DNA of 64,000 bases from Gammaproteobacteria bacterium. GTDB lineage: Bacteria; Cyanobacteriota; Vampirovibrionia; Vampirovibrionales; JAJTHC01. The notes under the pieces are model-generated. The model made no database searches. It had not been told where the DNA came from and saw only the letters and a list, made by a program, of their open reading frames with translations. Positions within the stretch are counted from its first letter, which is position 1; every line of letters starts with the position of its first letter. This document shows, one piece after another, positions 8,629 to 39,934 of this stretch. The stretch covers positions 49,144 through 113,143 of the forward strand of contig JBEISK010000001.1 in assembly GCA_040375445.1 (NCBI GenBank). Direction: 5' to 3'. The position numbers and the translations under genes were made by a program.

Positions 8629-8679
8629 ACTGTAAACGTCTATAATCGTCAAGAAAATAGGACAAAAAAGGATTCCACC

Positions 8680-9231: not shown

Positions 9232-9259
9232 TCCCCAAACCCTTTTAGAGGATGCCTAC

Positions 9260-10333: not shown

Positions 10334-10398
10334 AGCCATCTAGGGTCTCTTCGTTGTCGTTACGATGCCCTCCCCTAATTTAGAAAGCAGAAAACCCC

Positions 10399-22797: not shown

Positions 22798-22832
22798 GAT
22801 GGAATCCTTTGTTAACTATTGTTTCGAGAAGA

Positions 22833-24467
22833 TTACTGACCACCCATGGGCAAGTTTTGCGAAACCCCATTTTGTGGACTGTAGCCTTGTAATTGCTGTA
22901 ATAATGCTTGATCCCGTTGAATCAAGACCTGTTCAAAACGTTTACCAATGGCCTGGGTACTGCTTTGAAATTGACTCGTCAATAACTGAGGCTTAAAGCC
23001 TAGTACAATGACTAAAACCGCCAGTGTGCCTAGCACCCAAACTTCGTTACTTTTAGCATCTTCAATTTTTTGGCAAGCATCGGAAACGGCCCCGAAAAAA
23101 ATGCGTTTCACCAACCATAAAGAATAGGCGGCACCCAACACGATTCCTAAGGTGGAAAGCCCTGTAATCCACTGAATGTTGATGGGAAGGCTTACAAAAC
23201 CAAGGGGGATGGCTCTAAAGCTTTGAGAGATGAACGCACCATATAAAGCGAGTGTTTCACCTGCAAAACTAATCAAAAGCGGAAGCCCTAAGCTGGCTAA
23301 CGACATCAACAAGAAGGTATAGAAGATAAACGGTGCTTTTTGTGCGACTCCACCATGTAAGGCAATGTCTCGGCTATGGGTTTGACGATACAACGTGCCA
23401 ACGCCCAAGAATAAGGCGGCACTGACTAAACCGTGAGACACCATAATAAAGACCGCCGCCATTGTACCGACTTGGTTCATGGCCACGAGTGCCAACAGGA
23501 TGAATCCCATGTGGCTGACCGATGAATAAGCGATGAGCTTTTTCATATCGGTTTGAACCAGTGCGATACTACCCGTATAAACAATGTTAATAAAGGCTAA
23601 AACGCCAATATAAGGAGCTAAGGCTTGAGCAGCCACAGGGAACCAGTCGAATCCAAAACGCAGTAAACCGTAAGCTCCCATTTTAAGCAAGATTCCAGCG
23701 AGTAGCATGGAAATAGGCGTTGGCGCTTCAACGTGGGCATCGGGCAACCATGTATGAAGGGGAACAATCGGTAATTTCACCGCAAAAGCGATGAAGAATC
23801 CCACAAATAAAAGTAGTTGGAATACAGGTGGAATATAGCCTGATTGAGCCAAGGCTCCCAATTGCGTAAAGCTAAAGAGCGTTTCCCTCGGCAAGTGATA
23901 GCTTTGGCTGAAATACGCCAAACCAATGATGCTTGCGAGTAAAAAGACGGATCCAAAAAGTGTGTAAAGCACAAACTTCATGGCGGCATATTCACGACGA
24001 GGCCCGCCCCATGTGCTAATCAATAGGTACATCGGAATCAGTTCGAGTTCAAAGAAGAGGAAGAACAAGAACAAATCACGAGACAAAAACACACCCAAAA
24101 CAGAACCAATCAACACAAAAAGCAAGCTGTAATAGAACGGTAAGCGTTTTTCAATCGTAGAAAAACTGGCTCCAGTGGCTAAGACCATCAACAAGCTGGT
24201 TAAAACGGCAAGCGTGGTTGAAATGCCGTCTGTGCCAAGCGAGAAATTAATCCCTAAAGCAGGCAACCAAGACAAGTTAAATGTCGCCGTTTGTGCCTCA
24301 GGCGAAATGGCGAGTAGTCCTGTCAGGAGGAGCAATACAACGGATGCGCCTAGAGCAATACGATGAAGTCCTTTATGCGTCGACGCATCTTCTGCTTTTG
24401 AGAGGAAGGGAAAGATCCCTGCCACTAAAAAGGGAAAGCCAACAATAAGAGGGAGTAAATTGTTCAT
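22833..24467 (-). CDS. nuoM: NADH-quinone oxidoreductase subunit M
   Basis: 544 aa with NuoM/ND4-like sequence. Confidence 0.9.
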   Translation of the reverse strand: MNNLLPLIVGFPFLVAGIFPFLSKAEDASTHKGLHRIALGASVVLLLLTGLLAISPEAQTATFNLSWLPALGINFSLGTDGISTTLAVLTSLLMVLATGASFSTIEKRLPFYYSLLFVLIGSVLGVFLSRDLFLFFLFFELELIPMYLLISTWGGPRREYAAMKFVLYTLFGSVFLLASIIGLAYFSQSYHLPRETLFSFTQLGALAQSGYIPPVFQLLLFVGFFIAFAVKLPIVPLHTWLPDAHVEAPTPISMLLAGILLKMGAYGLLRFGFDWFPVAAQALAPYIGVLAFINIVYTGSIALVQTDMKKLIAYSSVSHMGFILLALVAMNQVGTMAAVFIMVSHGLVSAALFLGVGTLYRQTHSRDIALHGGVAQKAPFIFYTFLLMSLASLGLPLLISFAGETLALYGAFISQSFRAIPLGFVSLPINIQWITGLSTLGIVLGAAYSLWLVKRIFFGAVSDACQKIEDAKSNEVWVLGTLAVLVIVLGFKPQLLTSQFQSSTQAIGKRFEQVLIQRDQALLQQLQGYSPQNGVSQNLPMGGQ

Positions 24468-24479
24468 GTCTTGGGATTC

Positions 24480-26486
24480 CTAGCCTTTAAACATCCACTG
24501 ATACAGGAGCCACACACCCACAACACCAAATCCAATGGTGGCGACGTAGGTTTGAAGGCGTCCGCTGTTAAGTCGGGTAACAAGCTTGCCTAAGAGCAAG
24601 GTCACTGTGCCGACTAAGTTCACTAAACCGTCGATGACGTATTTGTCAAAACCTGCATTGAGTTGCGATTGAAGCAATACGCCCCCTTCCACAATGCCGT
24701 CGTAAATATCGTCCATATAAAACTTGTTTTGCGACAAGCTGTATAAAGGAGCCAATACTTTTTTTACGCCGTCGGTCTTAAAGACCTTGAAGTAGTAAAA
24801 CGCACTCGACAATCCAACACCAACCAACGCCACCAGCTGTGAGATATTCCCTACTTGGTTAAACATGGCATCCAGCAAGCTATGCGGATGATGTTCGGGA
24901 GCGTTTTGCAAGCTATACGTAATGTAATCGCCAAAGGCGGGAATGCCGACAAAGCCTGAAAGTACTAGACCGATGAAGATCGAAGGGATCGCTAAAATCT
25001 GTAAAGGCAATGTCATCACCTTATCTTCATGGTGAACATGGGCTTTACCACGATAATCACCCATAAAGGTCATAAAGAAGGTGCGGAACATGTAGAAGGC
25101 GGTCAAACCAGCCGTTGCCGTTAGAATCAGGTAAACCGCTGTATTTTCATGCAAAGCCGCCGCTAGAATCTCGTCTTTACTCCAGAAACCACTCGTCCAA
25201 AACAAGCCTGAAATGGCAATCGTTCCAATCAAGTAAGTCAACCCTGTAATGGGGAGCTTCTTGAATAAGCCTCCCATTTGACGCATGTCTTGCTCGTCTT
25301 CACAGGCGTGAATCACACTGCCTGAGCAGAGAAAGAGCATCGCTTTGAAAAAAGCGTGCGTAAAGAGGTGGAACAATCCTGCGGTGTATGCCCCAAGCCC
25401 CATTGCCGCAACCATAAAGCCGAGTTGAGACATCGTGGAATACGCCAACGCTTTTTTAATATCCGTTTGAGACACGGCAATAATCGCACCGACTACAGCG
25501 GTGATGACGCCCGTCCAAGTAATGAAAGGCATCGCCATATCAGGGGAAATACTAATAATGGGGAAGACTCGAGCAATGAGGTAAACCCCAGCGGCGACCA
25601 TGGTCGCAGCGTGAATCAAAGCTGAAATAGGCGTCGGACCTTCCATGGCATCGGGTAACCATGTATGCAAGGGGAACTGAGCGGATTTCGCCATAGGCCC
25701 AGCGAAAATAAGGATCGCAATTGTGCCGAGCAACCAAGGCGGTAACGTTTGACTCATAAAGCCTGCTAATGATTCAAAGCCTTGAAAGGACAATAACGCT
25801 TGTTCAGGATGCAATCCCACATAGCCTTGCCACCAGTTCAGACTAAAGAAGAGCAAGAACAGGATGCCAATTAAAAAGCCAAAGTCTCCAACACGGTTGA
25901 CCAAGAAAGCTTTTAAAGAAGCGGCAGCCGCAGCTGGCTTGTGGAACCAAAAACCAATCAATAGGTAACTGGAAACACCCACCAATTCCCAAAACATATA
26001 CATTTGAGGCAAGTTCGTGGCAAGGACCAATCCCAACATACTAAAATTGAATAAGGCTAAGTAACCGAAAAACTTAGCATAACCCTTGTCATGTCGCATG
26101 TAACCGTGCGTATAGTATTGAATCAGAAGACTCACAAAGGTGACGACGCTCAACATAAGGACGCTGTTCGCATCCAATAAGGTACCGATTTTAAGTTCTA
26201 AATTGCCTGCAGACAGCCAAGTCCAGTTACGTTCAACCGCTTGAACGGCTTCATGTGGCTGAGCAAAAAGCCACTGAATGGCTGAAATCGCATGGAGCAA
26301 TCCCAAGCCTGTTGCCGTCATGGTTAAAATGGGGGCAGAAATCTGAGGCAATAAAGCGGTTTTTTCGCCTGTTTGTGGGTCATTGATTTGTATGGCACGA
26401 CCAATACTAATAGTTAAAAATGCAAGAAGGGGGTAAAGTGGGACAAGCCACAGGTTGTTTAAAAAAAAGTCTGAAAACCAATTCAT
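24480..26486 (-). CDS. nuoL: NADH-quinone oxidoreductase subunit L
   Basis: 668 aa with NuoL/ND5-like sequence. Confidence 0.9.
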   Translation of the reverse strand: MNWFSDFFLNNLWLVPLYPLLAFLTISIGRAIQINDPQTGEKTALLPQISAPILTMTATGLGLLHAISAIQWLFAQPHEAVQAVERNWTWLSAGNLELKIGTLLDANSVLMLSVVTFVSLLIQYYTHGYMRHDKGYAKFFGYLALFNFSMLGLVLATNLPQMYMFWELVGVSSYLLIGFWFHKPAAAAASLKAFLVNRVGDFGFLIGILFLLFFSLNWWQGYVGLHPEQALLSFQGFESLAGFMSQTLPPWLLGTIAILIFAGPMAKSAQFPLHTWLPDAMEGPTPISALIHAATMVAAGVYLIARVFPIISISPDMAMPFITWTGVITAVVGAIIAVSQTDIKKALAYSTMSQLGFMVAAMGLGAYTAGLFHLFTHAFFKAMLFLCSGSVIHACEDEQDMRQMGGLFKKLPITGLTYLIGTIAISGLFWTSGFWSKDEILAAALHENTAVYLILTATAGLTAFYMFRTFFMTFMGDYRGKAHVHHEDKVMTLPLQILAIPSIFIGLVLSGFVGIPAFGDYITYSLQNAPEHHPHSLLDAMFNQVGNISQLVALVGVGLSSAFYYFKVFKTDGVKKVLAPLYSLSQNKFYMDDIYDGIVEGGVLLQSQLNAGFDKYVIDGLVNLVGTVTLLLGKLVTRLNSGRLQTYVATIGFGVVGVWLLYQWMFKG

Positions 26487-26549
26487 GGCGAGGGGCTACT
26501 CCTTAATACATCTGTTTAATTTTGGAATATCGTGACAATTTTGCATCAA

Positions 26550-26900
26550 TTACCACTTCAAACGACTGAAATCTTCAACATCAACGCTCGCCGTATTTTT
26601 AAACAAGGCGAGAACAATGGCGAGTCCTACGGCGGCTTCGGCAGCAGAAATCGTCAAAATAAAGATGGCAAATACTTGCCCTGACAAATCACTCGGATTC
26701 ACATGATTGTTGATGGCAACAAAAACCAAGTTCACAGCATTGAGCATCAATTCAACGCACATAAGTGTACGAATCAAGTGGCGTGAACTGACGACACCTG
26801 CAAAGCCCAATCCAAATAAAATGGTGGCAACACCTAAGTAATGGTGAACGGTAAGCCCTGCTACGGCAGCGACTTCGGCGACTTCTGCACTCATCATCAT
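26550..26900 (-). CDS. nuoK: NADH-quinone oxidoreductase subunit K
   Basis: About 100 aa with three TM helices (...LMCVELMLNAVNLVFV...). Start taken at the Met whose ATG overlaps the nuoJ stop (ATGA). Confidence 0.85.
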   Translation of the reverse strand: MMMSAEVAEVAAVAGLTVHHYLGVATILFGLGFAGVVSSRHLIRTLMCVELMLNAVNLVFVAINNHVNPSDLSGQVFAIFILTISAAEAAVGLAIVLALFKNTASVDVEDFSRLKW

Positions 26901-27565
26901 AGTGAACATTCCTTTTTAAGCTCTTCGGTAGCAGGGGCTTCTTCTTCGGCGACTTCGGCATCGACAAAGCCGACATCCTTACGCCATTCAGCCGCAAGCG
27001 TCGGCTTTAAGCGACCTTCTTGAATAGAAAACGTCAAGCCTGGCTCTTGAGACGTAAACGTTTTTTTGGAAAGCATAATGGCTCCAATCATTGCCCCTAA
27101 AAGCAAGATAGACGCCACTTCAAAGGGAAGCACATACTTGCTAAATAGTAATTGGCCAATCGCCAATGTGCTGCCTTGCTCGTGCAATTCTCTAATCCAT
27201 TGAGCAGATGCGGGGAATTGCTTGATATTAAAGCCCATAACGCTTGTGAAAATAAGGGCGAACAGAGCAACAGAACTAATACTGGCAATGAGTAGCCGTC
27301 CGAGTTTGCCTGCTCGTGCTTTTAAAGGCGTGTCGCCTGTAAACATGATACCAAACAACATGACAATGGTAAGCCCTACACCATAGACCAACACTTGAGC
27401 GGTCGCTAAGAAATCAGCGTTGTTCAACAGGAAAAAAGCGGCGATCGAAAAGAAGACCACAATCAGGCTCAACGCACTGTAAAGCACACTTGGAGCCAAT
27501 ACCACGCCTAAGGCGGCTCCTATGGCAACGGTTGCAAAAATCCAAAATAAGGTAGATTCAAACAA
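26897..27565 (-). CDS. nuoJ: NADH-quinone oxidoreductase subunit J
   Basis: 222-aa membrane subunit, positioned between nuoI and nuoK. Confidence 0.85.
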   Translation of the reverse strand: MFESTLFWIFATVAIGAALGVVLAPSVLYSALSLIVVFFSIAAFFLLNNADFLATAQVLVYGVGLTIVMLFGIMFTGDTPLKARAGKLGRLLIASISSVALFALIFTSVMGFNIKQFPASAQWIRELHEQGSTLAIGQLLFSKYVLPFEVASILLLGAMIGAIMLSKKTFTSQEPGLTFSIQEGRLKPTLAAEWRKDVGFVDAEVAEEEAPATEELKKECSL

Positions 27566-27610
27566 TGTATAAGCTCCAATCTAAACAAGGCTAACAGGGG
27601 ACGAAACGTC

Positions 27611-28141
27611 CTATAATACGGTGGGCGTATAGCCACGTTTGGCACGCCATTCATCAGATTCTTGACCACTAAGGGTGAGATCTTTTTTGTCAAGTACTAA
27701 GGCTTCACGGCTGTAATCCGCCAACTCAAAGTCGCTTAACATTTTAATGCAATCCACAGGGCAGACTTCGGTACAGTTTCCGCAGAAAATGCAACGTCCC
27801 ATATCAATGGTAAAACGTGTAACGACAGGCTTTTTATCGTCGTCACGATGCATGTCGATCTGAATGAGGTCATCACACGGGCAGACCCTTGCACAGGCTT
27901 GACACCCGATACATAGATCCGTGTCATCAGATTTCGACAACAGGCTCAAGCGTCCGTGAAAGCGGTCGCTTAATTCAGGCATGACTTCAGGATATTCAAG
28001 CGTGACGGCTTCTCTTGGGTGATGCTTAAGTACGGTTGCAAAACCTTGTGCAATCGCCTTAATGCCTTCAAAAACGACATTGCCTTCGGCATGTTCAATC
28101 GCATTGAGGGGATGTTGAGCATCGTGTGAATGATTCGACAT
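27611..28141 (-). CDS. nuoI: NADH-quinone oxidoreductase subunit I (two 4Fe-4S ferredoxin motifs)
   Basis: CIGCQACARVCP and CIFCGNCTEVCP. Confidence 0.9.
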   Translation of the reverse strand: MSNHSHDAQHPLNAIEHAEGNVVFEGIKAIAQGFATVLKHHPREAVTLEYPEVMPELSDRFHGRLSLLSKSDDTDLCIGCQACARVCPCDDLIQIDMHRDDDKKPVVTRFTIDMGRCIFCGNCTEVCPVDCIKMLSDFELADYSREALVLDKKDLTLSGQESDEWRAKRGYTPTVL

Positions 28142-28162
28142 AGCAAGACAAAATCCTTTTGA

Positions 28163-29458
28163 CTAAGCGTGATAACGAGCAGCCACTTGGGCTTTAAATT
28201 GACGATCGATGAAGTGACAGAAGCCACCGACACCACAAATGCCGACGAGTGCTGCAAGGGCGAGATAGATCCAACTGCCTGCGAAACCGTCCGCCAAAAA
28301 ACTAAGGCTAAACTGCTTGGCAAAGCCGAGCATGAACAAGTTAATTAAAGAAAGCGGAATGAGGAACTTCCAGCAGAAGCCCATGAGCTGATCGGGCTTT
28401 AAGCGAGGGAGTGTGCCTCTTAAAAGCATCGCAATATAGATGAAAATGTAGGTTTTGCTGAGCATCCAGAAGATTTGTTCACCGTTTACGAGCAAAGGCT
28501 TAATGGCAGGGAGCTTCACGGCTTGAATGATGGCATCCGCTAAGCCGTAGTTCTGCATGAAGGTGCCTCCAAAAGGCGAGGTGTATCCGCCAAAGAACAA
28601 CGCCACGGTTAGAGCAGACAATACAAACAAGCCCGCATATTCTGCCAAGAAGAAGGTCGCAAACTTCATACCCGAGTATTCGGTGTTATAACCGCTGACC
28701 AGTTCGCTTTCCGCTTCAGGTAAATCGAACGGCACACGGTTGACTTCGGCAATTGAAGCCACATAGAATAACAAGAAGCTTAATGGTGTGAGCATGATGC
28801 CGTACCAGTGAAGGACTCCTCCGCTTTGGGCTTCGATAATAGTCTTCAAGTTACCGCTACCCGTGAATAAAACCACGCCAATCACCGATAAAATCAGAGG
28901 AACTTCATAGCTAATGGCTTGAGCCGCACTACGCATCCCACCCAGCAACGAGTATTTATTGTTCGATGCCCAACCTGCAAGCACGAGTCCGATCACCGAA
29001 ATAGACGATAACGCAAACAGAACAAGCAAGCCCAAAGGCAAGCTTACCCCAATGAGGCTCTCGCTAAACGGCACAATCGCATACAAGGCAAACACAGGGA
29101 ATAAGAAAATCGCAGGAGCCAAGGTGAACAAGAACTTGTCCATCACAGGGGTCATAATATCTTCTTTAGTCAGAAGCTTAACGCCATCGGCGATGGTTTG
29201 AAACATTCCGCCAGGCCCGACTCGGTTAGGGCCTTTACGTTGCGTAAACCATGAAAGGACTTTACGTTCCATTAAAACCATGACCACCGCAGCGGCTTGA
29301 CCCATGACGGCGACCATACCAAACAACACCACGCCCGTTAAGAAAATAGGCACAATATCAGGCAATTGATGCCACAATTCAATGGCTTTCATAAAGTGAA
29401 AGCTTGGATCTAGAAGTTGTGCAAGTGTGGGGATTTCAAAGCTGGCAGTCGCGTTCAT
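28163..29458 (-). CDS. nuoH: NADH-quinone oxidoreductase subunit H (with N-terminal extension)
   Basis: ERKVLSWFTQRKGPNRVGPGG... matches the NuoH/ND1 core. Confidence 0.9.
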   Translation of the reverse strand: MNATASFEIPTLAQLLDPSFHFMKAIELWHQLPDIVPIFLTGVVLFGMVAVMGQAAAVVMVLMERKVLSWFTQRKGPNRVGPGGMFQTIADGVKLLTKEDIMTPVMDKFLFTLAPAIFLFPVFALYAIVPFSESLIGVSLPLGLLVLFALSSISVIGLVLAGWASNNKYSLLGGMRSAAQAISYEVPLILSVIGVVLFTGSGNLKTIIEAQSGGVLHWYGIMLTPLSFLLFYVASIAEVNRVPFDLPEAESELVSGYNTEYSGMKFATFFLAEYAGLFVLSALTVALFFGGYTSPFGGTFMQNYGLADAIIQAVKLPAIKPLLVNGEQIFWMLSKTYIFIYIAMLLRGTLPRLKPDQLMGFCWKFLIPLSLINLFMLGFAKQFSLSFLADGFAGSWIYLALAALVGICGVGGFCHFIDRQFKAQVAARYHA

Positions 29459-29491
29459 AGGATTGCATCTCTTTCTTTGGGCAAACAGGGC

Positions 29492-30775
29492 TTATCTGTC
29501 TACTTCAGGCATAATAACGTCGAGGCTACCAAAAATAGCCATTAAATCGGAATACATATGACCCTTCATCAATTCTGGAAGAGCGGACAAATTGCTGAAA
29601 GACGCCCCACGCCACTTGATGCGATACGCCTTAGGCGTGCCGTCGGTAATAATGTAGCAACCCAAAACACCACGAGGCGATTCCACAAAGTTGGACGCTT
29701 CACCAGCGGGTGGCTTATAGGTCAACAAATTGATTTTCTTGCCCATGGTATCCCAATCCTTGTCCCAAGGAGGCACAACGATTTCAGGATTTTTCTTGGC
29801 TTCTTTGGTTTTGGCTTCAACCTCTTTTTTCAGAATGGCTAAAGCACCGCCGTCTCCACCAGGGATTTTGTCAATGCACTGTTTGATGATTTTAATGGAT
29901 TCACGCATTTCTTGCACACGCACCAAGTAACGAGCATAGGTATCGCACCCTGTATGCGTCGGCACATCAAAATCCAATTCGTTATATACTGAATAAGGAT
30001 TCGTTTTACGAAGGTCTAAGGCTTCACCTGTGGCTCGCAAAGCAGGACCCGTCACGCCGTATTTAAGGCAGAACTCTTTGCTCATAATGCCGTGACCCTT
30101 GGTTCGATCCATTACAATGGGGTTCTTGGTGGCAACCGCTTCGTATTCATCCAAACGATCGGGGAAATGATTACAGAAGGCACGCACTTCTTCCAGCCAG
30201 CCAGCAGGCAAGTCATTGTTGACGCCTCCAAAGCGGAAGTAGTTGTACATCATTCTTGCCCCAGTGAGGTTTTCAAAAATCGTGAAGACTTCTTCACGAT
30301 CTCTAAAACACCAGAAGAAAGGCGTAGACGCCCCTAAATCAAGCAAGAATGTTCCAAACCACAACAAGTGAGACGTAATACGGTTTAATTCAAGACAAAT
30401 CACACGGATATATTCCACACGCTTAGGCACAGGAATATCGGCAATTTGCTCGATGCAATTGACAAAAACCAAGTGATCGTAAAACGATGAGAGATATTCC
30501 ACACGGTCAATCGTCGGCTGATATTGAAACAAGGAACGACTTTCGCCCATTTTTTCCTTGGAGCGATGCAAATAACCAATCACAGGCTCCATTTCTTTAA
30601 CAACTTCACCATTCAGCGTGGTGACCAAACGCAAAACGCCGTGAGTTGAAGGATGCTGAGGTCCGATATTGACGACCAAATCATTGGTGTCAAACCCTGT
30701 TTCTATAGAAACACCCGGTAAGTTGCTTTGCAATTCAGGATTCAATTCTTTAACAGACATCATAGTAGTTTCCAA
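29492..30775 (-). CDS. nuoD: NADH-quinone oxidoreductase subunit D
   Basis: 427 aa with NuoD/49 kDa-like sequence (GPQHPSTHGVLRL...). Confidence 0.9.
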   Translation of the reverse strand: METTMMSVKELNPELQSNLPGVSIETGFDTNDLVVNIGPQHPSTHGVLRLVTTLNGEVVKEMEPVIGYLHRSKEKMGESRSLFQYQPTIDRVEYLSSFYDHLVFVNCIEQIADIPVPKRVEYIRVICLELNRITSHLLWFGTFLLDLGASTPFFWCFRDREEVFTIFENLTGARMMYNYFRFGGVNNDLPAGWLEEVRAFCNHFPDRLDEYEAVATKNPIVMDRTKGHGIMSKEFCLKYGVTGPALRATGEALDLRKTNPYSVYNELDFDVPTHTGCDTYARYLVRVQEMRESIKIIKQCIDKIPGGDGGALAILKKEVEAKTKEAKKNPEIVVPPWDKDWDTMGKKINLLTYKPPAGEASNFVESPRGVLGCYIITDGTPKAYRIKWRGASFSNLSALPELMKGHMYSDLMAIFGSLDVIMPEVDR

Positions 30776-30796
30776 AACGTTTAACGAATAACAAGA

Positions 30797-31330
30797 CTAG
30801 CGACGGTTCCACACCAATCGAGGGTCTTCTTCTTTGTAATCTTTACGCAAGGGGTGACCTAACCAATAGGTCGGCATTAAAATGCGACGCAAATCAGGAT
30901 GCCCCTCATAGTGAATACCCATTAAATCATAGGCTTCACGCTCATGCCAATCAGCCGCAGGCCAAACAGGGTAAAGGCTTGGGGATGTGTCGTTCGCATC
31001 GGCGACGATTTTAATAATCAATGAATGGTAATGCACGGTGGAATAGAGATGATAAACGCTTTCACGATGCGTCTTCCAGTCAATTCCCGTCACCAATAGG
31101 AGCATATCAAGCTTTGAGCTAGCATCACCCTTAAGCAACTCGCCTGCTTTAAGAATGGCTTCAGCGGTTAAGCGAATAATTTCGGTACCTTTGGCGTCGT
31201 TGCCTAGATGTTCAGCAGCAATACCTTTAGATTCAAGCAAGGCCCCAAACATACCAGCAGGAATAGCGGGCGTCGCTTCAATCACTTCAGTTTCAGGAGC
31301 CTGTTCAGGCGATTTATTTTCTTCGTTCAT
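30797..31330 (-). CDS. nuoC: NADH-quinone oxidoreductase subunit C
   Basis: 177-aa NuoC/30 kDa-like protein (...[22 protein letters not shown]...). Confidence 0.85.
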
Positions 31331-32018
31331 GACGGTGCTTTATATTGCCTCTTACTAATCCTAATTCGCCACGCTCAAGCATTTCTTCGACATTGTATCC
31401 ATCTTTTTGGATGCCCCAATGTAAGAAGTCCGCCTCAGTAGCTCCTTCTAACGGCACTAAACAATCGTCCTCATCCAAACGCACACGGGCAATATGCTGT
31501 GCGGTACGCTTGCGACGTTCAGCTAAAGTTTCTTTACGCATTTTCTTTTGCAGTTGGATCAACGCATCCAATAAGGCTTCAGGACGTGGTGGACAACCTG
31601 GAACATATACATCAACAGGAATCACACGATCCACGCCACGCACGACTGAATAGGAGTCGTTTTCATACATCCCGCCTGTGACCGTGCAGGCCCCCATAGC
31701 GATGACATATTTAGGTTCAGCCATTTGCTCATATAAACGCAATAAAGCAGGTGCCATTTTATACGTAATGGTGCCTGCGGTAATCATTAAATCGGATTGT
31801 CTTGGGGTGGCACGAAAGGCTTCTGAACCAAAGCGAGCAATGTCAAATTTTGGAGCAGATGCCGACATCATCTCGATCCCACAACAGGAGGTTGCAAAGG
31901 TCATCGGCCAAACCGAATTGCTTCTTGCCCAGTTGTAGACGGCATCGACCGTTGTGACGATAATTCCGCTACTTTCTAGCATATCTTGCCACGCATCAGA
32001 AACGAGGTTTACTGCCAT
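31314..32018 (-). CDS. nuoB: NADH-quinone oxidoreductase subunit B (with about 60-aa C-terminal extension)
   Basis: [15 protein letters not shown] and [10 protein letters not shown]...[11 protein letters not shown]. Start at ATG 32018, preceded by AGGAG. The longer ORF to 32129 overlaps nuoA. Confidence 0.85.
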
Positions 32019-32368
32019 CTTAAGGCTCCTTTTCGCCACGCATACACAATACCGAGTGCCAAAATGCCGACGAAAACCAGCATTTCCACCAACGCAAAGA
32101 CGCCCACTTTCTCGTACGCCACAGCCCAAGGAAACAAGAAAATCGTTTCAATATCAAATAAGATAAAGAGCAAGGCATAGAGATAAAACTTCACATCAAA
32201 GCGAATACGTGCTTCGCCATAAGGCTTCATGCCTGATTCATAGGTTTCATGCTTGTAAGCGGTGGGGTGCTTAATTTGAACCAACTGCGAAATAGCAAAA
32301 AGCAAAAAAGGAAACAATCCGCAAAAGAGCAGAAGGACGAAAAATACGGGGTATCCAGTTAAGTGCAT
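32009..32368 (-). CDS. nuoA: NADH-quinone oxidoreductase subunit A
   Basis: 119-aa three-TM protein (...[15 protein letters not shown]...). First gene of the operon. Confidence 0.85.
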
Positions 32369-33256: not shown

Positions 33257-35233
33257 ATGAGAGTTACCTTATCTATCCACTTATTGTATTGCTTCGCATT
33301 AGGGACGTTTCTATTTTTAGACGCCCCTGCTTTTGCGGTGAACCTGCAAGGGGTAGACGACTTGCCCTTGACGCAGTTCCCTACCGCTGATGCTCGTTTG
33401 AACGAACTTCTTAAAGAAGGCGATGTGTTTCGATCCGAAAGCCTTTTAAATGCCATTATTGAACGTGAGCCGACGAATTGGCGAGCCTTGGTCAATTTGG
33501 CATATTTACAGCAAAAGCAATGGCAATACCCTACGGCGAAAGTCTTGTTGATGCGTGCCAAAAGTATTGTGCCACAAGAGCCAACCGTAATAGGTGAGCT
33601 AGGGTATCTCTATTTGAAATGGGCAAGCCAAACCGACCTAAAACCTGCCCCCCCAGCCGATGCCTTAAGCCAAGCCGAACGCCTTTTAAAACAAGCCTTA
33701 ATGATGCACCCGAATGATGCGATGACCCCACTCTATTATGCGGAATTGTGCTTGTTTAAGGACAAAAACTCGCCTGAAGCCAAGACCTACGTCAAACAAG
33801 CTTTAGCGATGCACCCAACGCATCAACCTGCTTTGTTACTGGCGTCTCACCTCTATCAAGAAATGGGCTTACGATCTCAAGCCAAGCAAGCCTTACTTAT
33901 GGCGTATGACTTGGGCAGTAAAAATCCTGCGGTACTAGATGCCATGTCTCGTACGCTGGCGAAATTGGAACGCCCTGAAGATGCCATTCATTATGCCAAT
34001 GAAGCGACCTTGTATGATGTCGCCGAATCGCCTGAACGCCTGCGTTTAAAAGCAGAGCAGTATGAAAAATTGGCGGACCCGCAAAAGGCATTAAAGATAT
34101 ATCAAGCCCTTGTCCCCTATTTCCCTAAATCTCCTGAATTAAGTCTGAAGAAAGCTAGCTTGACGGAACAAGTTTCGGGAACGGAGAAGGCGACCCCTGC
34201 CTTTCAAGAAGCGATGCGTTTGAATCCCGATTTAGTGCCAAATTACAAAGCAGAAGCGAAAGCCTTGATCATCAAAGAATCGTTGGATGCGGCTAAAGCC
34301 CCCTTGCAATCAGTCTTACGGCTCACGCCTGAAGACCCTCATTTGCTTAGCTGGTTGAGCATTCTTTACTACCGCAAGTTGTTGCTTGGGCAATCGGTGG
34401 ATAAAGACGAATTAGCTTCGGTGCAACGCCTGCTAAAACGCTCGCAAGGCACGACGCTAAAAATGAGCTTACCCCAAGGCACGAACGCCCTAAGCGTCCA
34501 GCCTTTGCCTGAACAGCGGACGTTGGAAGCCTTACGTTTAAAGCTAGTCGCTCAAGACGGCGTCTTAGAAGCAGAAGATCTCAAGCAATTAAGCCATCTC
34601 AAAATTTTTGGAGCCACCCCTGTGATTCGTGCAGAATCGGCGTTTTTATATGGGGATATACCCACGGCATTCGCCGAACTTAAGCGATTGCCCCCGCCTG
34701 CTAATGCGGAAGACGCCCTTGATTTAGCTCATCAATGGCGGTTGATGCAATTTATCCCGGGAGCCTTAAAAGCCTTTCAATGGGCGTATACGGCAAACCC
34801 TACCGATGAAACGCGTCGGCGGATTGTGGAACTTGAACAAGTGGACGTCCGCATTGAAGAGCGTCTCCATACCTTGCAAGCCGCGTTGCCTCAAGGGGTG
34901 AAAAACATCAAAAAAATCAAGCAAGCGGCAATGCAAAAGCAATTGAATCAGCTCAAAGAAGAAGCCAATACGGCGTTGCAGTTGAATCCCAGTCATCCTT
35001 TAGCGTGGGAGCTTTTGGCGGATGTTGCTGAGCGTGAAGGGCAGTGGGGGCGTGCCGTTTTATTATGGCAAGAAGCCAAAATGCGAGATAGCGAAGGGAA
35101 GGATCAGGCGAGAGTCCACCAACGCCTCGTTAATGCGAAGTATCAGGCGTCAAAAGCGGGCATCGTACCGTTGTCGTCGCTGATGCAAGGAAATCGTCAA
35201 GCTGTGCCTGCGAGTGTGGGCTATAGCTTTTAA
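33257..35233 (+). CDS. secreted tetratricopeptide-repeat (TPR) protein
   Basis: N-terminal signal peptide (LLYCFALGTFLFLDAPAFA). Multiple TPR-like 34-aa repeats (LAYLQQKQWQY..., ALAMHPTHQPALLLASHLY...). Confidence 0.8.
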   Translation: MRVTLSIHLLYCFALGTFLFLDAPAFAVNLQGVDDLPLTQFPTADARLNELLKEGDVFRSESLLNAIIEREPTNWRALVNLAYLQQKQWQYPTAKVLLMRAKSIVPQEPTVIGELGYLYLKWASQTDLKPAPPADALSQAERLLKQALMMHPNDAMTPLYYAELCLFKDKNSPEAKTYVKQALAMHPTHQPALLLASHLYQEMGLRSQAKQALLMAYDLGSKNPAVLDAMSRTLAKLERPEDAIHYANEATLYDVAESPERLRLKAEQYEKLADPQKALKIYQALVPYFPKSPELSLKKASLTEQVSGTEKATPAFQEAMRLNPDLVPNYKAEAKALIIKESLDAAKAPLQSVLRLTPEDPHLLSWLSILYYRKLLLGQSVDKDELASVQRLLKRSQGTTLKMSLPQGTNALSVQPLPEQRTLEALRLKLVAQDGVLEAEDLKQLSHLKIFGATPVIRAESAFLYGDIPTAFAELKRLPPPANAEDALDLAHQWRLMQFIPGALKAFQWAYTANPTDETRRRIVELEQVDVRIEERLHTLQAALPQGVKNIKKIKQAAMQKQLNQLKEEANTALQLNPSHPLAWELLADVAEREGQWGRAVLLWQEAKMRDSEGKDQARVHQRLVNAKYQASKAGIVPLSSLMQGNRQAVPASVGYSF

Positions 35234-35261
35234 ATCTTTAGAGGGCTGTGCGAAAATGGAT

Positions 35262-35360
35262 TTACCCCCTCTCCCTTTGGGAGAGGGTTGGGGTGAGGGC
35301 TTCAGGATCGCCAGCTATAGCTGGTGTTTCCCTCATCCTAGCCTTCTCCCAAAGGGAGAA
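35262..35360. repeat. GGAGG-rich palindromic hairpin cluster
   Basis: CTCTCCCTTTGGGAGAGGG and CTTCTCCCAAAGGGAGAAG perfect palindromes. Confidence 0.5.
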
Positions 35361-35380
35361 GGAACAAAACAAAAGCCAAT

Positions 35381-35417
35381 AAAAAAGCCCTCTTCCTTGT
35401 GAGAAGAAGGCTTTTTG
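35381..35417. terminator. bidirectional rho-independent terminator between convergent TPR and flagellin genes
   Basis: AAAAAA-GCCCTCTTC-cttgtga-GAAGAAGGC-TTTTT. Confidence 0.6.
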
Positions 35418-35434
35418 GATGAACAAGGTGTTTG

Positions 35435-36289
35435 TTATCTAAGTAACTGTATCGCCAAGTTCGGAGCCTGATTGGCTTGACCAAGAACGGTTGCCGCTGC
35501 CTGTTGAAGAATCTGATTCTTAGTCATTTCAGCGGATTCCTTCGCCACATCCACGTTGCGGATGCGTGATTCACTGGCACTGAAGTTCTCGATCGAAATC
35601 GCTAAGTTCGTGCTAGCGGAAGTCAAACGATTACTCAAAGCACCAATAGACGCTCTTCGGTTACCGACACGCTGAAGGGCAATGTCAATCTTTGAAATCG
35701 CTTTCAAAGAAGAGGCGTTAGTGGTCACGCCGAACGCGACAACCGTACCTGAACCAATCCCTAAGCTGGTTTTGCTCAAAGTTCCTAAAGCCGATTGAGC
35801 TGAACCAATGTCTAAGATGTTGGTCCCTGAAGCGGATTCCGCTCCGACCTGAATTTTGAAAGTGGCGACAGAAGAAAAGAGCTTCTTCCCGTTAAATTCA
35901 GTGGCTTTGGCGATACGATCAACATCATTGGTCAGCTGTAACAATTCCTTGTTAATCGCTGAACGCTGATCGACACCGAGCGTATCGTTGGCCCCTTGTA
36001 CAGCAAGTTCACGCATACGTTGCAGGTTATCTGTAATCGTACTGAGTGACCCGTCTGCCGTGTTAAGAACGTTAATACCGTCTTGCACGTTATCATTGGC
36101 TTTTTGACTGCCTCTGATTTGAGATCGTAACGTTTCAGAAATCTGCAAACCCGCCGCATCATCGGACGCTTTGTTGATTCTGAATCCAGATGACAACTTC
36201 TCAAGTGATTTGCCTAGGTCCATGGTGTTTTTACCCAACAGACGTTGTGCATTGAGAGATTGCACATTGGTATTGATTTGAATACCCAT
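35435..36289 (-). CDS. flagellin, short form (D0/D1 only, 284 aa), paralog 1
   Basis: N-terminus INTNVQSLNAQRLL...LSSGFRINKASDDAAGLQIS and C-terminus ...MTKNQILQQAAATVLGQANQAPNLAIQLLR are canonical flagellin termini. Confidence 0.9.
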   Translation of the reverse strand: MGIQINTNVQSLNAQRLLGKNTMDLGKSLEKLSSGFRINKASDDAAGLQISETLRSQIRGSQKANDNVQDGINVLNTADGSLSTITDNLQRMRELAVQGANDTLGVDQRSAINKELLQLTNDVDRIAKATEFNGKKLFSSVATFKIQVGAESASGTNILDIGSAQSALGTLSKTSLGIGSGTVVAFGVTTNASSLKAISKIDIALQRVGNRRASIGALSNRLTSASTNLAISIENFSASESRIRNVDVAKESAEMTKNQILQQAAATVLGQANQAPNLAIQLLR

Positions 36290-36419
36290 AGTAAATGAAT
36301 CCTTTAATGTTTATTGCTAAAATAGAGTAAAGTAGAGTTGAAAGAGTTTCAACCGAATAAAGTAATGTCCGCCTCCTTTCGTAATGTTTTATGGTTCTAC
36401 ATGAAGTGTTAGAAGGTGA

Positions 36420-36449
36420 AGGGCTTAGTAAGGATAAACCAAGCCCCTT
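36420..36449 (-). terminator. hairpin between the two flagellin genes (AGGGCTT...AAGCCCT)
   Basis: 7-bp stem, 18 nt downstream of the stop of flagellin paralog 2. No strong T-run. Confidence 0.35.
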
Positions 36450-36467
36450 GCCTATAAGTTCAAAGGC

Positions 36468-37322
36468 TTAACCAAGTAACTTCAAGGCAAGCTGAGGGGA
36501 TTGGTTGGCTTGAGACAAGACCGTCGCCGCCGCTTGTTGAAGAATCTGATTTTTGGTCATGTTGGCAGATTCTTTCGCCACATCCACGTTACGGATGCGT
36601 GATTCACTGGCACTGTAGTTCTCGATCGAAATCGCTAAGTTCTGGCTAGCGGAACCCAAACGATTGGTCAACGCACCAATAGAGGCTCTTCGGTTACCAA
36701 CGCGCTGAAGGGCGATATCGATCTTTGAAATCGCTTTCAAAGAAGAAGCGTTGGTCGTTACGCCAAAAGCAACCACTGTACCAGAACCGATACCCAAGCT
36801 AGTTTTACTTAAAGTGCCTAAGGCTGAGCTAGCTGAACCAATGTCTAAGACGTTGGTACCTGAAGCGGATTCCGCTCCGACCTGAATTTTGAAAGTAGCG
36901 ACAGAAGAAAAGAGCTTCTTCCCATTAAATTCAGTCGATTTAGCAATACGATCAATATCGTTCGTTAGCTGTAACAATTCCTTGTTAATCGCTGAACGTT
37001 GATCGACACCTAGCGTATCGTTTGCACCTTGTACGGCGAGTTCACGCATACGTTGAAGGTTGTCTGTAATCGTGCTAAGTGAGCCGTCTGCGGTATTCAA
37101 AACGTTAATGCCGTCTTGAACGTTATCGTTGGCTTTTTCACTACCACGAATCTGAGATCTTAGGACTTCAGAAATCTGTAAACCAGCGGCATCATCCGAA
37201 GATTTGTTGATTCTGAATCCAGACGCTAACTGCTCTAAAGATTTGTTTAAGCCCATGGTGTTTTGGGTTAACAAACGTTGTGCATTAAGAGATTGCACGT
37301 TGGTATTAACATTAATAGGCAT
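36468..37322 (-). CDS. flagellin, short form (284 aa), paralog 2
   Basis: About 90% identical to paralog 1 at protein and DNA level. Own Shine-Dalgarno (AAGGAG). Confidence 0.9.
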   Translation of the reverse strand: MPINVNTNVQSLNAQRLLTQNTMGLNKSLEQLASGFRINKSSDDAAGLQISEVLRSQIRGSEKANDNVQDGINVLNTADGSLSTITDNLQRMRELAVQGANDTLGVDQRSAINKELLQLTNDIDRIAKSTEFNGKKLFSSVATFKIQVGAESASGTNVLDIGSASSALGTLSKTSLGIGSGTVVAFGVTTNASSLKAISKIDIALQRVGNRRASIGALTNRLGSASQNLAISIENYSASESRIRNVDVAKESANMTKNQILQQAAATVLSQANQSPQLALKLLG

Positions 37323-37772
37323 AATAAAATGCTCCTTATCTTCCGTGATTAGGATGCTATTTCGTATCCGTTCTGCCTAAGCCTTTAACGAATCGCCTGT
37401 GGTGTTTGGCACAGGCTTTTTAAGTACAAAAGAGCGTCCTGTAGACCTAAATGCAAGCATTTAAACTATGTTAAACGTCTGGTGACTTAAAAATGATTGG
37501 TGAAAGAGAGATAGTCAGAAGAGGATAAGTCCTGCATCCGTGTGTATTGCATCCGTGCAACAATTTTGTTAATCCCAGTTGTGAACAAAAAATTGTTTTC
37601 GCTAGGCAACCTTGTTACGCTGAATGTATCGACACCGTGTTTTCAAAGTTTGAGCAGTTCCTTCATTTGGAGGAGGCTTCTTCTTAAAGCAGGACGGCAT
37701 GGACTTTTCGCCTCTAGCCAAAACCAAACTTTTCACCTAAACTAAAGGAGTGCTTTTTCAAAGGAAATCCCT

Positions 37773-39572
37773 ATGCCGTCACTACCCATTTCTCCCTTCT
37801 TTATACCCCCAGCGGATGCCTTGCTTTATGTGCTAGCGTTTGTTTTGGGCATTAGAAGCACATGGATTTTATTTTCGGCTGAACAGGGACGCCGCCATGA
37901 CTTAACGTATCGCCCACCAGTCAAAGGGCAAGATTTTGACGTCAACATTGTGGTTCCCCTCATGCACGCCGATGATGATATGGCCTTACAAGATTTTTTA
38001 GCCTGCACGGCCGCACAGACGTATGAAAACGCCCGCATCCTTATTTTGGCTCATCCAGACGCCCAATGGATGCAAGAATCTCTAGAATTACCTGAAACGT
38101 GTCAGTGGATCAATGTACCGAGTACCTTTGCTCAAAACCAACAAAGCGTCTTAAGGTGGGGATTAAACCGCGTTTTAGCGATGCACCCTCCCCATCTATT
38201 TGTCTTGCTGGATGTTTATGATCTGATTAAACCTGATTTTCTAAGCCATGCCGTTTCGATTGCTTATCAACATGACGTGTATCAAGGCTATATGGCTCAT
38301 CGAGATTTTGGCGAAGGGGTTTTAAGTCGTAGCTTAGGTTTGTTGACTCGACTAAGGTCTCGCATTGAAAGCGTCGGTCGTTTTCATGGCGGCTTGGGCT
38401 TATTGTTTCGCCATAGCGGACTTGCCTTCAAGCCCAGTTTACTTGAGCGCTTCCCACTTGAACACCATCCTAGTCTGGGCTACGCCCCTTGGAGCATCAC
38501 GCTCAATCAAGCCAGTGCCCGTTTGCCCAGTATCAAAGTACATTGGGTACCTAGTATGATTGTGTATCAAAGGCATTACCCTGACGTATTTGCCCATGTC
38601 TCGCATGAAATAGAAGCCACCATCACTGTAGTGGCAGGGCTTATCAATCGTTTTATAAGACTCGCTCGCCCTCGTGAACTCGAGCAACGCTTGGCGATGC
38701 TGCCCACTAATTTAATTTTAAACACGATTTTGCTAGCCAGCATGGCAATTTTTGTACAACAAGGGTTATTCCCTGAAAAAGTAGGCACCCCTTTGGCATG
38801 GTCACTCTTAGCAGGCGGGCAAATGCTCTTATGGGGCATCACCTTAAGTGTCGCTCGCATTAAACCTGCAGACTGGTTGAGCTCGACCTTAATTGTCATG
38901 TCTGCCACCTTGCTGGAAATACTGGCTTTCCCTGTAGCCCTTGTGGGCTGGATCGTTCAAAAACTTAGTCGTCTGAATCAACCTCGTTCAAGTCACTATC
39001 AAGAGGCTCGTTCATTTTCAAAGCTCACTCCCCTGAAAGAATCCTTAGATGCTCATCGTGTTCAACCCAGGCTTGCTAGTGGAGTCTTGCCTGTAACACC
39101 ACAAACCAGCATATCTGCCCCTCAAACCTTAAACACACAAACACCGTTTGTCTTAACACTCGGCTCTCAAGAAATTGTTGCCGATATTAAGGTGGATATT
39201 AAACCCTGTTCCGAAGGCTTACTCTATGCCTTAACGTTGACGTATAAACAACAACGTTTTCAAACCCAACACACCCCAAAACTGGAAGACGCCTTTATTG
39301 AGTTAAGTCAAACCTTGTCTCACTATCAAATCCAACCCAAGACGTGTGGGAACTGTGCCTATTGGTTTGTAAATCAAGCCACCCGTCCTCTTGTGGAAGG
39401 ATTACCCAAGCAAGGAACTTGCCTAAAAAACAAGCAGGGTAAAGTCTTAAGTATGGATGATGTCGCCTTAAACGTGCTTTCTGTCCCATGTGAAGCACAC
39501 ACCGAACGCCATCAACATGAAGCGGTTGTGCAGGCGTGGAAAGAGAGCCTTGAAAACCTTGCGAAAATGTAA
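37773..39572 (+). CDS. membrane protein with N-terminal TM anchor, GT2-like (GT-A) domain, a central multi-TM region and a C-terminal Cys-containing domain
   Basis: VNIVVPLMHADDD...TYENARILIL and LLDVYD (DXD-like) resemble family-2 glycosyltransferases. Hydrophobic stretches around aa 300-390. C-terminal CGNCAYW...C...C. Confidence 0.45.
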   Translation: MPSLPISPFFIPPADALLYVLAFVLGIRSTWILFSAEQGRRHDLTYRPPVKGQDFDVNIVVPLMHADDDMALQDFLACTAAQTYENARILILAHPDAQWMQESLELPETCQWINVPSTFAQNQQSVLRWGLNRVLAMHPPHLFVLLDVYDLIKPDFLSHAVSIAYQHDVYQGYMAHRDFGEGVLSRSLGLLTRLRSRIESVGRFHGGLGLLFRHSGLAFKPSLLERFPLEHHPSLGYAPWSITLNQASARLPSIKVHWVPSMIVYQRHYPDVFAHVSHEIEATITVVAGLINRFIRLARPRELEQRLAMLPTNLILNTILLASMAIFVQQGLFPEKVGTPLAWSLLAGGQMLLWGITLSVARIKPADWLSSTLIVMSATLLEILAFPVALVGWIVQKLSRLNQPRSSHYQEARSFSKLTPLKESLDAHRVQPRLASGVLPVTPQTSISAPQTLNTQTPFVLTLGSQEIVADIKVDIKPCSEGLLYALTLTYKQQRFQTQHTPKLEDAFIELSQTLSHYQIQPKTCGNCAYWFVNQATRPLVEGLPKQGTCLKNKQGKVLSMDDVALNVLSVPCEAHTERHQHEAVVQAWKESLENLAKM

Positions 39573-39706: not shown

Positions 39707-39934
39707 ATGAAATTAAATTTTAGCCGTTCTACTTTCTCCCCTTCAGCTGCGAAAACCGATGCTCAACGTGCTGGCCAAGCACAACAAATGAAAAATACTA
39801 AATTGGCCGCTATGAAAGCCAACAAAAACCATGACACGTTGTACGTCAACGGCCGTGAAGTTAATACTACTGCTGTGATGAAAGCCAACACTGCAGCCGC
39901 AATGGCTAAAGCGACTTATACCGCTTCCGTTTAG
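39707..39934 (+). CDS. hypothetical small Lys/Ala/Thr-rich protein
   Basis: 75 aa, low complexity (AAMKANKN..., MKANTAAAMAKATYTASV). Intergenic position with its own start. Confidence 0.35.
   Translation: MKLNFSRSTFSPSAAKTDAQRAGQAQQMKNTKLAAMKANKNHDTLYVNGREVNTTAVMKANTAAAMAKATYTASV

Follow-up and report, generated by a model that had tools for sequence, protein, structure and literature searches.

A tandem flagellin locus of the Vampirovibrionales with a predicted CsrA-type leader and a divergent, non-canonical synthase-like membrane protein

The locus described here lies within a stretch of 64,000 nucleotides (nt) of contig JBEISK010000001.1 (the window; all positions refer to it unless another locus is named). 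It comprises two tandem flagellin genes on the minus strand, the conserved 5′ leader of the first of them, and a divergently transcribed gene on the plus strand for a membrane protein of 599 amino acids (aa). The promoter-proximal (first) flagellin gene is located at 36468–37322 and the promoter-distal (second) gene at 35435–36289, and each encodes 284 aa. The open reading frame (ORF) for the 599-aa protein, a degenerate homologue of hyaluronan and cellulose synthases of the glycosyltransferase family 2 (GT2), extends from 37773 to 39572; the gap to the first flagellin is exactly 450 nt, as given in an earlier note made from the sequence of the window. Taken together, we consider this to be probably a filament locus of a flagellated member of the Vampirovibrionales, with a CsrA-type leader and a non-canonical synthase-like neighbour.

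Both flagellins cover the full Pfam profiles Flagellin_N (PF00669; E 1.5e-40 for the first and 2.2e-41 for the second copy) and Flagellin_C (PF00700; E 1e-23 and 4.5e-23). They match solved flagellins of 270–285 aa from the PDB end to end and are therefore short D0/D1-type proteins, as the earlier note had proposed. The identity of about 90% between the copies stated there agrees well with the BLASTP value of 257/283 (91%). The central segment is rich in Ser and Thr. Like the short flagellins of the Hag/FliC type (e.g., Hag of Bacillus subtilis, 304 aa), the two proteins have full-length Flagellin_N and Flagellin_C domains and lack a large outer domain; paralogues in tandem occur commonly in that group, and nothing essential differs here. 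Both proteins would be expected to assemble into filaments. The best NCBIfam flagellin models scored below their equivalog cut-offs (242 versus 332 bits), which points to a lineage-specific flagellin branch.

Among the close relatives each flagellin copy resembles its positional counterpart in other genomes more than it resembles its own paralogue; the duplication is therefore older than the divergence of these species, and the two copies were retained. In comparison to the orthologues the ratio of non-synonymous to synonymous divergence (dN/dS) is 0.07–0.12 for the first and 0.12–0.13 for the second flagellin, and the flagellin locus is syntenic across the order. Judged from these comparisons, both copies are kept under purifying selection after an old fliC-type duplication. 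In the complete genome of Vampirovibrio sp. OL03a (CP050876.1; locus L013, 5922–9594) four tandem flagellin genes are present instead of two. Copies 2 and 4 of this strain start only 42 nt after the preceding copy, and the long leader with three GGA sites, described below, is found on the first flagellin only.

A scan with one genome per species detected the 599-aa protein in 8 genomes, among them CP050876.1. All of them are labelled Vampirovibrionales or Vampirovibrio, and the source names agree; among 5.8 billion proteins only 10 close clusters were found. The nearest relative, locus L006, has the entire gene order in common with the window, and its nuoB is 99% identical. The organism thus belongs to the Vampirovibrionales (Melainabacteria) and not to the Chlamydiae, which the earlier note had suspected. 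Vampirovibrio chlorellavorus, the cultured member of the order, swims by a single polar flagellum, has a complete flagellar gene set that is dispersed over many clusters, and encodes sigma-28 and CsrA; FliW is absent from its flagellar gene table, and FliI of the Melainabacteria is reported to be vertically inherited (PMC4451040). Since the order is flagellated and has a full set of flagellar genes, flagellins are expected in this organism and are not notable in themselves; the earlier note had considered them notable if the organism were Chlamydiae-like. At the level of the order, the locus is an ordinary multi-flagellin duplication.

No fli, flg, flh or mot families were detected by Pfam in the non-nested ORFs of at least 120 aa and the 75-aa ORF adjoining the locus, which confirms the earlier statement that fli/flg/flh genes are missing from the 64-kb window; smaller ORFs were covered by a tblastn probe for CsrA only. 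The genes for basal body, hook, export and motor would be located elsewhere in the genome, as in V. chlorellavorus. A tblastn search for csrA, with the E. coli CsrA sequence as query, gave nothing credible in the 329 kb of DNA analysed, which represent part of the genome only; the analysis covered the window and loci of about 20 kb.

The most conserved DNA of the locus is found next to the first flagellin gene: 310 nt are 84–95% identical to the relatives. Synonymous divergence to these relatives ranges from 0.3–0.6 (L006, the nearest) to 1.0–1.3 (L001 and L010), and the leaders of L001 and L010 are still 84–85% identical. The leader, about 300 nt in length (37323–37625, minus strand), is therefore more conserved than coding DNA. 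Our comparison included nine leaders of the close group, while the distant loci L012, L013 and L019 were compared by motif. Close and distant leaders were also aligned globally with MAFFT; this alignment was discarded, since its 3′ part was misaligned, and motifs were compared by position instead. A scan of metagenomes for the leader motif resulted in 5 matches including 2 new leaders; the matches in L014, L015 and L017 lie inside unrelated coding sequence and were considered as chance. No match to an RNA family was obtained with Rfam 15 within 37323–37772, even at E values up to 10, and a scan of 35200–37800 with the same limit gave only chance matches, mostly to a palindrome at 35267–35362. 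A small ORF in the leader (ATGCAATAC..., 21 codons) was rejected because relatives carry 2-nt indels inside it.

Within the leader, a hairpin GCCUGUG-N8-CACAGGC (37395–37416, minus strand) is paired in 63 of 63 cells of the alignment, with one compensatory pair and G·U wobbles at three pairs. These G·U pairs are mismatches on the opposite strand. The helix thus pairs fully on the flagellin-sense strand only, which implies that this part of the leader, some 100 nt before the start codon, is traversed by a sense RNA.

Three CA-N-GGA-(A/U)G elements are present within 220 nt of the leader on the flagellin-sense strand: CACGGAUG at 37550–37557 and at 37535–37542, and CACGGAAG at 37340–37347, close to the Shine-Dalgarno (SD) sequence AAGGAG. 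On both strands of the whole window the motif CANGGAWG occurs 20 times compared to 15.4 expected, so that there is no enrichment over the window and only the cluster in the leader is unusual; 20 occurrences correspond to about 0.05 expected per 300 nt of one strand. The most upstream element is part of a predicted hairpin, UUGUUGCA-CGGA-UGCAAUA (site 1, 37545–37563, minus strand), which is invariant in the nine leaders except for the loop base preceding GGA (C or U). Its counterparts are GCA-AGGA-UGC in L012 and L013 and UGCA-GGA-UGCA in L019, and the GGA is placed in the predicted loop (CGGA, AGGA or GGA) in the window, in L013 and in L019. Site 2, ACACACGGAUGCAGG (37531–37545, minus strand; element ACACACGGAUGC), is invariant in the close group, and its counterpart in L012 and L013, AUACAAGGAUGU, agrees at 12 of 12 positions with the CsrA SELEX consensus RUACARGGAUGU.

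Site 3 is combined with the SD sequence in AAUC-ACGGAA-GAU-AAGGAGC (37331–37350, minus strand), just upstream of the promoter-proximal copy, and is invariant in the nine leaders. L012 and L013 have AAAUCAAGGAAGAUAAAGGAAC at this place, in the context AAAUC-AAGGAA-GAU-AAAGGAAC. In both groups (window, L013 and L019 were folded) the GGA is predicted in a 6-nt loop (ACGGAA or AAGGAA), and the SD sequence is predicted to pair with an upstream AUCCU. The three sites appear in the same order in the distant loci L012 and L013. The two GGA motifs bracketing the SD sequence (cacGGAagataAGGAgc), to which the earlier note had drawn attention, are thus present as described, and the likeness to CsrA-binding flagellin leaders pointed out there was strengthened by the comparison: the GGA pair is invariant in nine leaders and represents one of three conserved sites.

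With these predicted sites, the leader looks built for translational repression by CsrA, and CsrA-dependent control of flagellin translation is its most likely function from our analysis. CsrA would bind to the GGA-loop hairpin, to the ACA-N-GGA-UG element 15 nt downstream, and to the third GGA in the 6-nt loop directly 5′ of the SD sequence, which itself would be sequestered by pairing with the upstream AUCCU. In this way CsrA would repress flagellin translation as at B. subtilis hag and Campylobacter flaA. Several GGA sites, of which one is placed in a hairpin loop (predicted here) and another is located at the SD sequence, are common to this leader and those of B. subtilis hag and Campylobacter jejuni flaA. 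The hag and flaA leaders are several-fold shorter than 300 nt, whereas the leader described here has a length of about 300 nt and three predicted sites, two of them far upstream, and its SD sequence is in addition predicted to pair with an upstream anti-SD. For the hag leader and the flaA 5′ untranslated region, control of flagellin translation by CsrA (together with FliW) is described, and flaA mRNA of Campylobacter was reported as both target and sponge of CsrA (PMC7652899, PMC4894983). Unlike in the CsrA-FliW systems, the Vampirovibrionales are documented for CsrA but not for FliW.

A candidate for a sigma-28-like promoter of the first flagellin, CTCAAA-N15-GTCGATAC, which can also be written CAAA-N17-CGATAC, is located at 37626–37654 on the minus strand. 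Eight loci from two divergent groups carry the pattern CAA(A/G)-N17-CGATAC in the corresponding position, which in the close group is about 300 nt and in the distant group about 265 nt upstream of the flagellin start codon. The sigma-28 consensus is TAAA-N15-GCCGATAA. Both the element of the window (CAAA-N17-CGATAC) and that of L013 (CAAG-N17-CGATAC) have the right spacing and a partial sequence match, and a sigma-28-like promoter, from which the first flagellin would be transcribed, may lie here. On the opposite strand a sigma-70-like promoter candidate for the 599-aa gene, TAGCCA-N17-TAAACT (37715–37743, plus strand), can be proposed. The distant group is among the 8 loci in which TAGCCA-N17-TAnnnT precedes this gene, and the element stands back to back with the candidate flagellin promoter. 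In L006 about 95 bp are inserted (around 9900–10000 of that locus) downstream of the promoter-like element, before the 599-aa gene begins, and the element is found 153 nt upstream of the start codon, compared to 58 nt.

Each flagellin copy has its own SD sequence (AAGGAG for the upstream and AAAGGA for the downstream copy), and a hairpin is located between the genes (36421–36447, minus strand), both as noted earlier. In the relatives the hairpin shows a compensatory change from C-G to U-A with a U·G intermediate; it is a candidate for a weak or leaky terminator. Separate transcription of the two flagellins is plausible from these features, and read-through is equally possible, since no clear U-tract follows the stem. 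The second flagellin would be expressed by read-through of the weak hairpin, from its own signals, or by both. A conserved GAAGGAGG(U/C)G block (36367–36380, minus strand), present in all second-copy leaders of the close group (window, L001, L006, L008, L010), precedes the second flagellin by about 80 nt. It resembles a strong SD sequence, yet it is not followed by a start codon. Downstream of the second flagellin an intrinsic terminator with a 15-pair stem followed by a T-run (35382–35416, minus strand) is conserved in the relatives. Between this terminator and the gene for a tetratricopeptide repeat protein a nested palindrome of 96 nt (35267–35362) has inverted arms of 33 nt that are 85% complementary, with CCTCTCCCTTTGGGAGAGG in each arm. 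None of the relatives has it at this position, where they share only the terminator with the window, and it therefore looks like a genome-specific insertion of the miniature inverted-repeat transposable element or repetitive extragenic palindromic type. Near-matches of the palindrome to Rfam models (microRNA and C4) were considered as chance.

By itself, the 599-aa protein had no match to Pfam (E ≤0.01), NCBIfam (E ≤0.001) or PDB sequences; a transporter match at E 1.7 in the PDB profile search was attributed to chance. An exhaustive profile search collected 98 family representatives. At 50% identity there are about 70 representatives, and the annotations that were looked up mostly read "hypothetical protein", while one genome annotation names a member "family 2 glycosyltransferase". 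Among 86 aligned family members 23 match PF00535 and 21 match PF13641. Profile–profile comparison between the close clade and those members that are positive for GT2 gave a probability of 99.6% and an E value of 3.5e-24 over 250 columns, with aa 40–295 as the hhalign-aligned part of the GT-A region. An AlphaFold2 model calculated from the 86-sequence alignment reached a predicted local distance difference test score (pLDDT) of 90.6; it replaced a first run with 11 sequences (pLDDT 48.6, best Foldseek E 0.2).

In the model, a single N-terminal membrane helix is followed by the GT-A domain (aa 57–266; 37941–38570), interface helices, three membrane helices (aa 314–402; 38712–38978), a disordered linker and a beta-rich C-terminal domain (aa 458–598; 39144–39566). 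The GT-A fold matches exopolysaccharide synthases in the structure search, and its fusion to interface and transmembrane helices is as in processive GT2 synthases. The C-terminal domain is modelled with a pLDDT above 90, belongs to no Pfam family, and contains the invariant residues C525, C528, C550, C573 and H576 in the motif C525-x2-C528...C550...C573-x2-H576. A GT2-like domain between membrane segments and a C-terminal Cys motif, as they were read from the sequence in the earlier note, are thus confirmed by the model. The C-terminal domain also occurs in stand-alone proteins of 144–269 aa (P0063, P0064, P0068, P0076), for which no Pfam family was found either; a match to a SEA-repeat protein (P0078) looks spurious. 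Counted over the three helices from a cytoplasmic GT domain, this domain would be outside the cell and by the positive-inside rule inside, and zinc binding and disulfide formation are both possible.

Most hallmark residues of GT2 enzymes are replaced in the 599-aa protein. The Asp of DNxxD (first uridine-binding Asp) aligns to H94, and D-A-D aligns to D147-V148-Y149. In the clade, Y, S or H takes the place of the second, invariant Asp of DxD, which is kept in P0010 only, while the first Asp of the motif (D147) and the nearby D150 are mostly kept. E-D of the (T)ED motif with the catalytic base aligns to G236-Y237, an invariant G(Y/F) in the clade, and QRxRW aligns to V276-S277-H278-E279-I280. 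The catalytic-base Asp is missing in 71 of 73 members with the C-terminal domain, and QxxRW occurs in none of these 73; 9 of 13 members without this domain keep both. A subgroup of about 540 aa in the family alignment retains the first Asp and has Glu at the position of the catalytic base, which suggests that the active site has decayed step by step within the family. The clade has invariant motifs of its own (QGYxAHRDFGEG, SRSLG, SVGRxHG, APWSITLN), and dN/dS of the 599-aa protein is 0.13–0.20. These data argue for a functional protein that is not a textbook glycosyltransferase.

In comparison to hyaluronan synthase (Chlorella virus, Xenopus HAS1) and the cellulose synthase BcsA, the 599-aa protein lacks the second DxD Asp, the catalytic Asp and QxxRW, and its first nucleotide-binding Asp is replaced by His. 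It has one helix before the GT domain and three after it, and a beta-rich Cys4-His domain instead of a PilZ domain, which neither Pfam nor NCBIfam detected. Of the glycosyltransferase suggested in the earlier note, the homology to GT2 enzymes stands, whereas three of four hallmark GT2 motifs are replaced and the protein itself has no Pfam or NCBIfam match. A Maf/PseE-type flagellin modification enzyme, for which the note had proposed a search, was not supported, since no such Pfam or NCBIfam family matches and the fold is that of GT-A synthases. Most likely, as far as sequence comparison can tell, the protein is a non-canonical or non-catalytic membrane protein. Its ancestor would have been of the processive GT2 synthase type and would have lost the residues for nucleotide-sugar, metal and catalytic base and gained the C-terminal Cys4-His domain.

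The gene for the 599-aa protein divergently adjoins tandem flagellins in all nine distinct loci with at least 35% identity (9/9). All remaining neighbours in L012, L013 and L019 are different from those in the window, but the divergent pairing with flagellins is maintained. One distant family member is located 3–5 kb away from flagellar rod genes, and next to four others no flagellar genes are present. The adjacency is suggestive of a flagellar role of the protein, and the back-to-back arrangement of promoters would link the flagellum to the expression of the protein and possibly also to what it does. Other proteins of the GT2 fold are genetically linked to flagella, namely EpsE of B. subtilis, which acts as a clutch on FliG, and GmaR of Listeria; we regard this likeness as a lead only. 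Both EpsE and GmaR are soluble proteins with a working active site and are not known to be membrane proteins of the synthase type, whereas the 599-aa protein is membrane-embedded and synthase-like, has its catalytic residues replaced, and is known from sequence alone. The flagellar role of EpsE was reported to be separable from its enzymatic role (PMC3000366, PMC9638930). GmaR is a flagellin glycosyltransferase of the GT2 family (PMC3150276); it transfers O-GlcNAc to flagellin and is also an anti-repressor of MogR.

Several points weigh against the reading proposed above. The evidence for flagellar apparatus, csrA and fliA is at the level of the order and stems from one paper (PMC4451040). The assignment to sigma-28 is based on partial agreement with the core sequence (3/4 and 5/6), and a second, proximal flagellin promoter may exist. 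Of 10 predicted leader helices, 7 show no compensatory change, and 3 of these 7 are invariant; covariation is weak because the nine leader sequences are 87% identical. The loss of catalytic motifs was read from alignments at 11–20% identity, intermediate members of the family retain an acidic residue at an adjacent position, and catalysis may proceed via other residues. Adjacency to flagellins is lost below about 35% identity and could thus be mere inherited gene order. If the latter were true, the 599-aa protein would be a synthase-like protein of the envelope and unrelated to flagella, a possibility to be taken seriously, though we rate it as rather unlikely. Members with 22–32% identity adjoin envelope genes (SpoIID, class A penicillin-binding protein) or unrelated genes and not flagellins, the non-adjacent member P0018 is itself from the Vampirovibrionales, and the fold is that of exopolysaccharide synthases. 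Inherited gene order does not easily account for a flagellin pairing that persists in L012, L013 and L019 while all other neighbours change, for the conserved intergenic region with its back-to-back promoter-like motifs, or for the distant member close to flagellar rod genes. That the protein is an active glycosyltransferase which modifies the adjacent flagellins appears unlikely to us. The true GT2 homology and GT-A fold, the retained D147 and D150, the pairing with flagellins across the order, the Ser/Thr-rich central segment of the flagellins, and the existence of GT2-family flagellin glycosyltransferases such as GmaR (PMC3150276) would fit such a function. The alignment of the DxD Asp, the catalytic-base Asp and QxxRW to Y149, Y237 and V276–I280, and of the uridine-binding Asp to H94, speaks against it, and no glycosyltransferase model of Pfam or NCBIfam reaches E 0.01 on the protein itself. 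Its architecture is that of a polymer-secreting membrane synthase, while the flagellin glycosyltransferases known to us are soluble. Moreover, no genes for sugar-nucleotide biosynthesis adjoin, and the rml genes are 26 kb away together with lipid A genes of lipopolysaccharide synthesis.

The conserved blocks in the 450-bp gap could also represent DNA operators for a transcription factor at the divergent promoters instead of RNA sites for CsrA. Site 1 is, as DNA, a perfect palindrome TTGCA-N4-TGCAA between the divergent promoters, with a geometry like that of FNR or CRP sites, and in a mostly invariant leader covariation cannot prove RNA structure. In an operator the spacer should be free to vary, but here the GGA in the spacer is invariant and the neighbouring base varies (C, U, A), which is the ANGGA pattern expected for CsrA and the opposite of spacer behaviour. 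In L013 the half-sites are imperfect and the RNA hairpin is still predicted to form; neither site 2 nor site 3 is palindromic, the latter is located at the SD sequence, and the G·U pairs of the leader helix work as sense-strand RNA only. We therefore give this alternative little weight. Orphan or horizontally acquired flagellins with another purpose in a non-flagellated organism would explain why no apparatus genes are present in the 64-kb window. This is very improbable: the lineage is flagellated with its flagellar genes dispersed over many clusters, across the order the locus shows synteny and purifying selection, GC content of the 36001–38000 bin, which holds most of the locus, is 0.43 and within the range of the window (0.38–0.51), and melainabacterial FliI was reported to be inherited vertically (PMC4451040). 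Going beyond the filament locus with CsrA-type leader and non-canonical neighbour that we favour, the 599-aa proteins might be an undescribed pseudo-glycosyltransferase family derived from synthases and recruited, in the Vampirovibrionales, to a flagellar role (e.g., flagellin production, export or filament modification controlled from a membrane anchor), and the leader might serve as target and sponge of CsrA; this combination is a speculative one that we would not expect to hold in full.

Directly downstream of the 599-aa gene, an ORF of 75 aa rich in Ala, Lys, Thr and Asn (39707–39934, plus strand) is 58–90% identical in L006, L007, L008 and L011. It had no tblastn match in L001, L002, L009, L010, L012 and L013 and no match to Pfam or NCBIfam. 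On the other side of the locus, a 658-aa tetratricopeptide repeat protein (33257–35233, plus strand) with a signal-peptide-like N-terminus is encoded convergently to the flagellins. It is conserved in the close group only and has weak NCBIfam matches to PrsT and PilW and a faint one to the flagellar collar protein FlcA (E 7e-4). A GT2 gene recognized by Pfam (6203–7732) stands beside genes with domains of the dTDP-rhamnose pathway, followed by LpxI and LpxB (6203–11292, plus strand). We consider this as a conventional cluster for envelope glycosylation, 26 kb from the flagellins and unlinked to them in the relatives. According to Pfam the window also encodes GroEL, aroK and aroB, RecA, an NDH-1 operon, CoaBC, GlmS, M16 peptidases and two secretins. 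The tandem secretin genes (58523–62542, minus strand) encode proteins of 695 and 643 aa, both with Secretin and Secretin_N domains, and are followed by a 399-aa ORF without Pfam match; they are probably an outer-membrane module of a pilus or secretion system. In the NDH-1 operon (21220–32129, minus strand) nuoD (29492–30775) is directly followed by nuoH (28163–29458), with no nuoE, F or G in between. This order we take to be that of the 11-subunit NDH-1 of Cyanobacteria, which fits the assignment to the Melainabacteria.

Our analysis clears a false lead: these are not chlamydial flagellins but the filament locus of a bacterium from an order whose cultured member is flagellated and preys on algae. 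Both the CsrA-type leader and the degenerate neighbour of synthase type are conserved, and we found no earlier description of either; their functions are those we infer above. The 599-aa family is a clean case of a polymer-synthase fold without the catalytic signature and with an added Cys-rich domain. It warns against the label "family 2 glycosyltransferase" and is a candidate for a new membrane function. If it was indeed recruited to the flagellum as a pseudo-glycosyltransferase, this would be the third independent flagellar use of the GT2 fold, after EpsE and GmaR. If the leader sites are true, the CsrA-flagellin circuit would extend to the non-photosynthetic sister lineage of the Cyanobacteria, and this would speak for an ancient origin of the circuit among flagellated bacteria.

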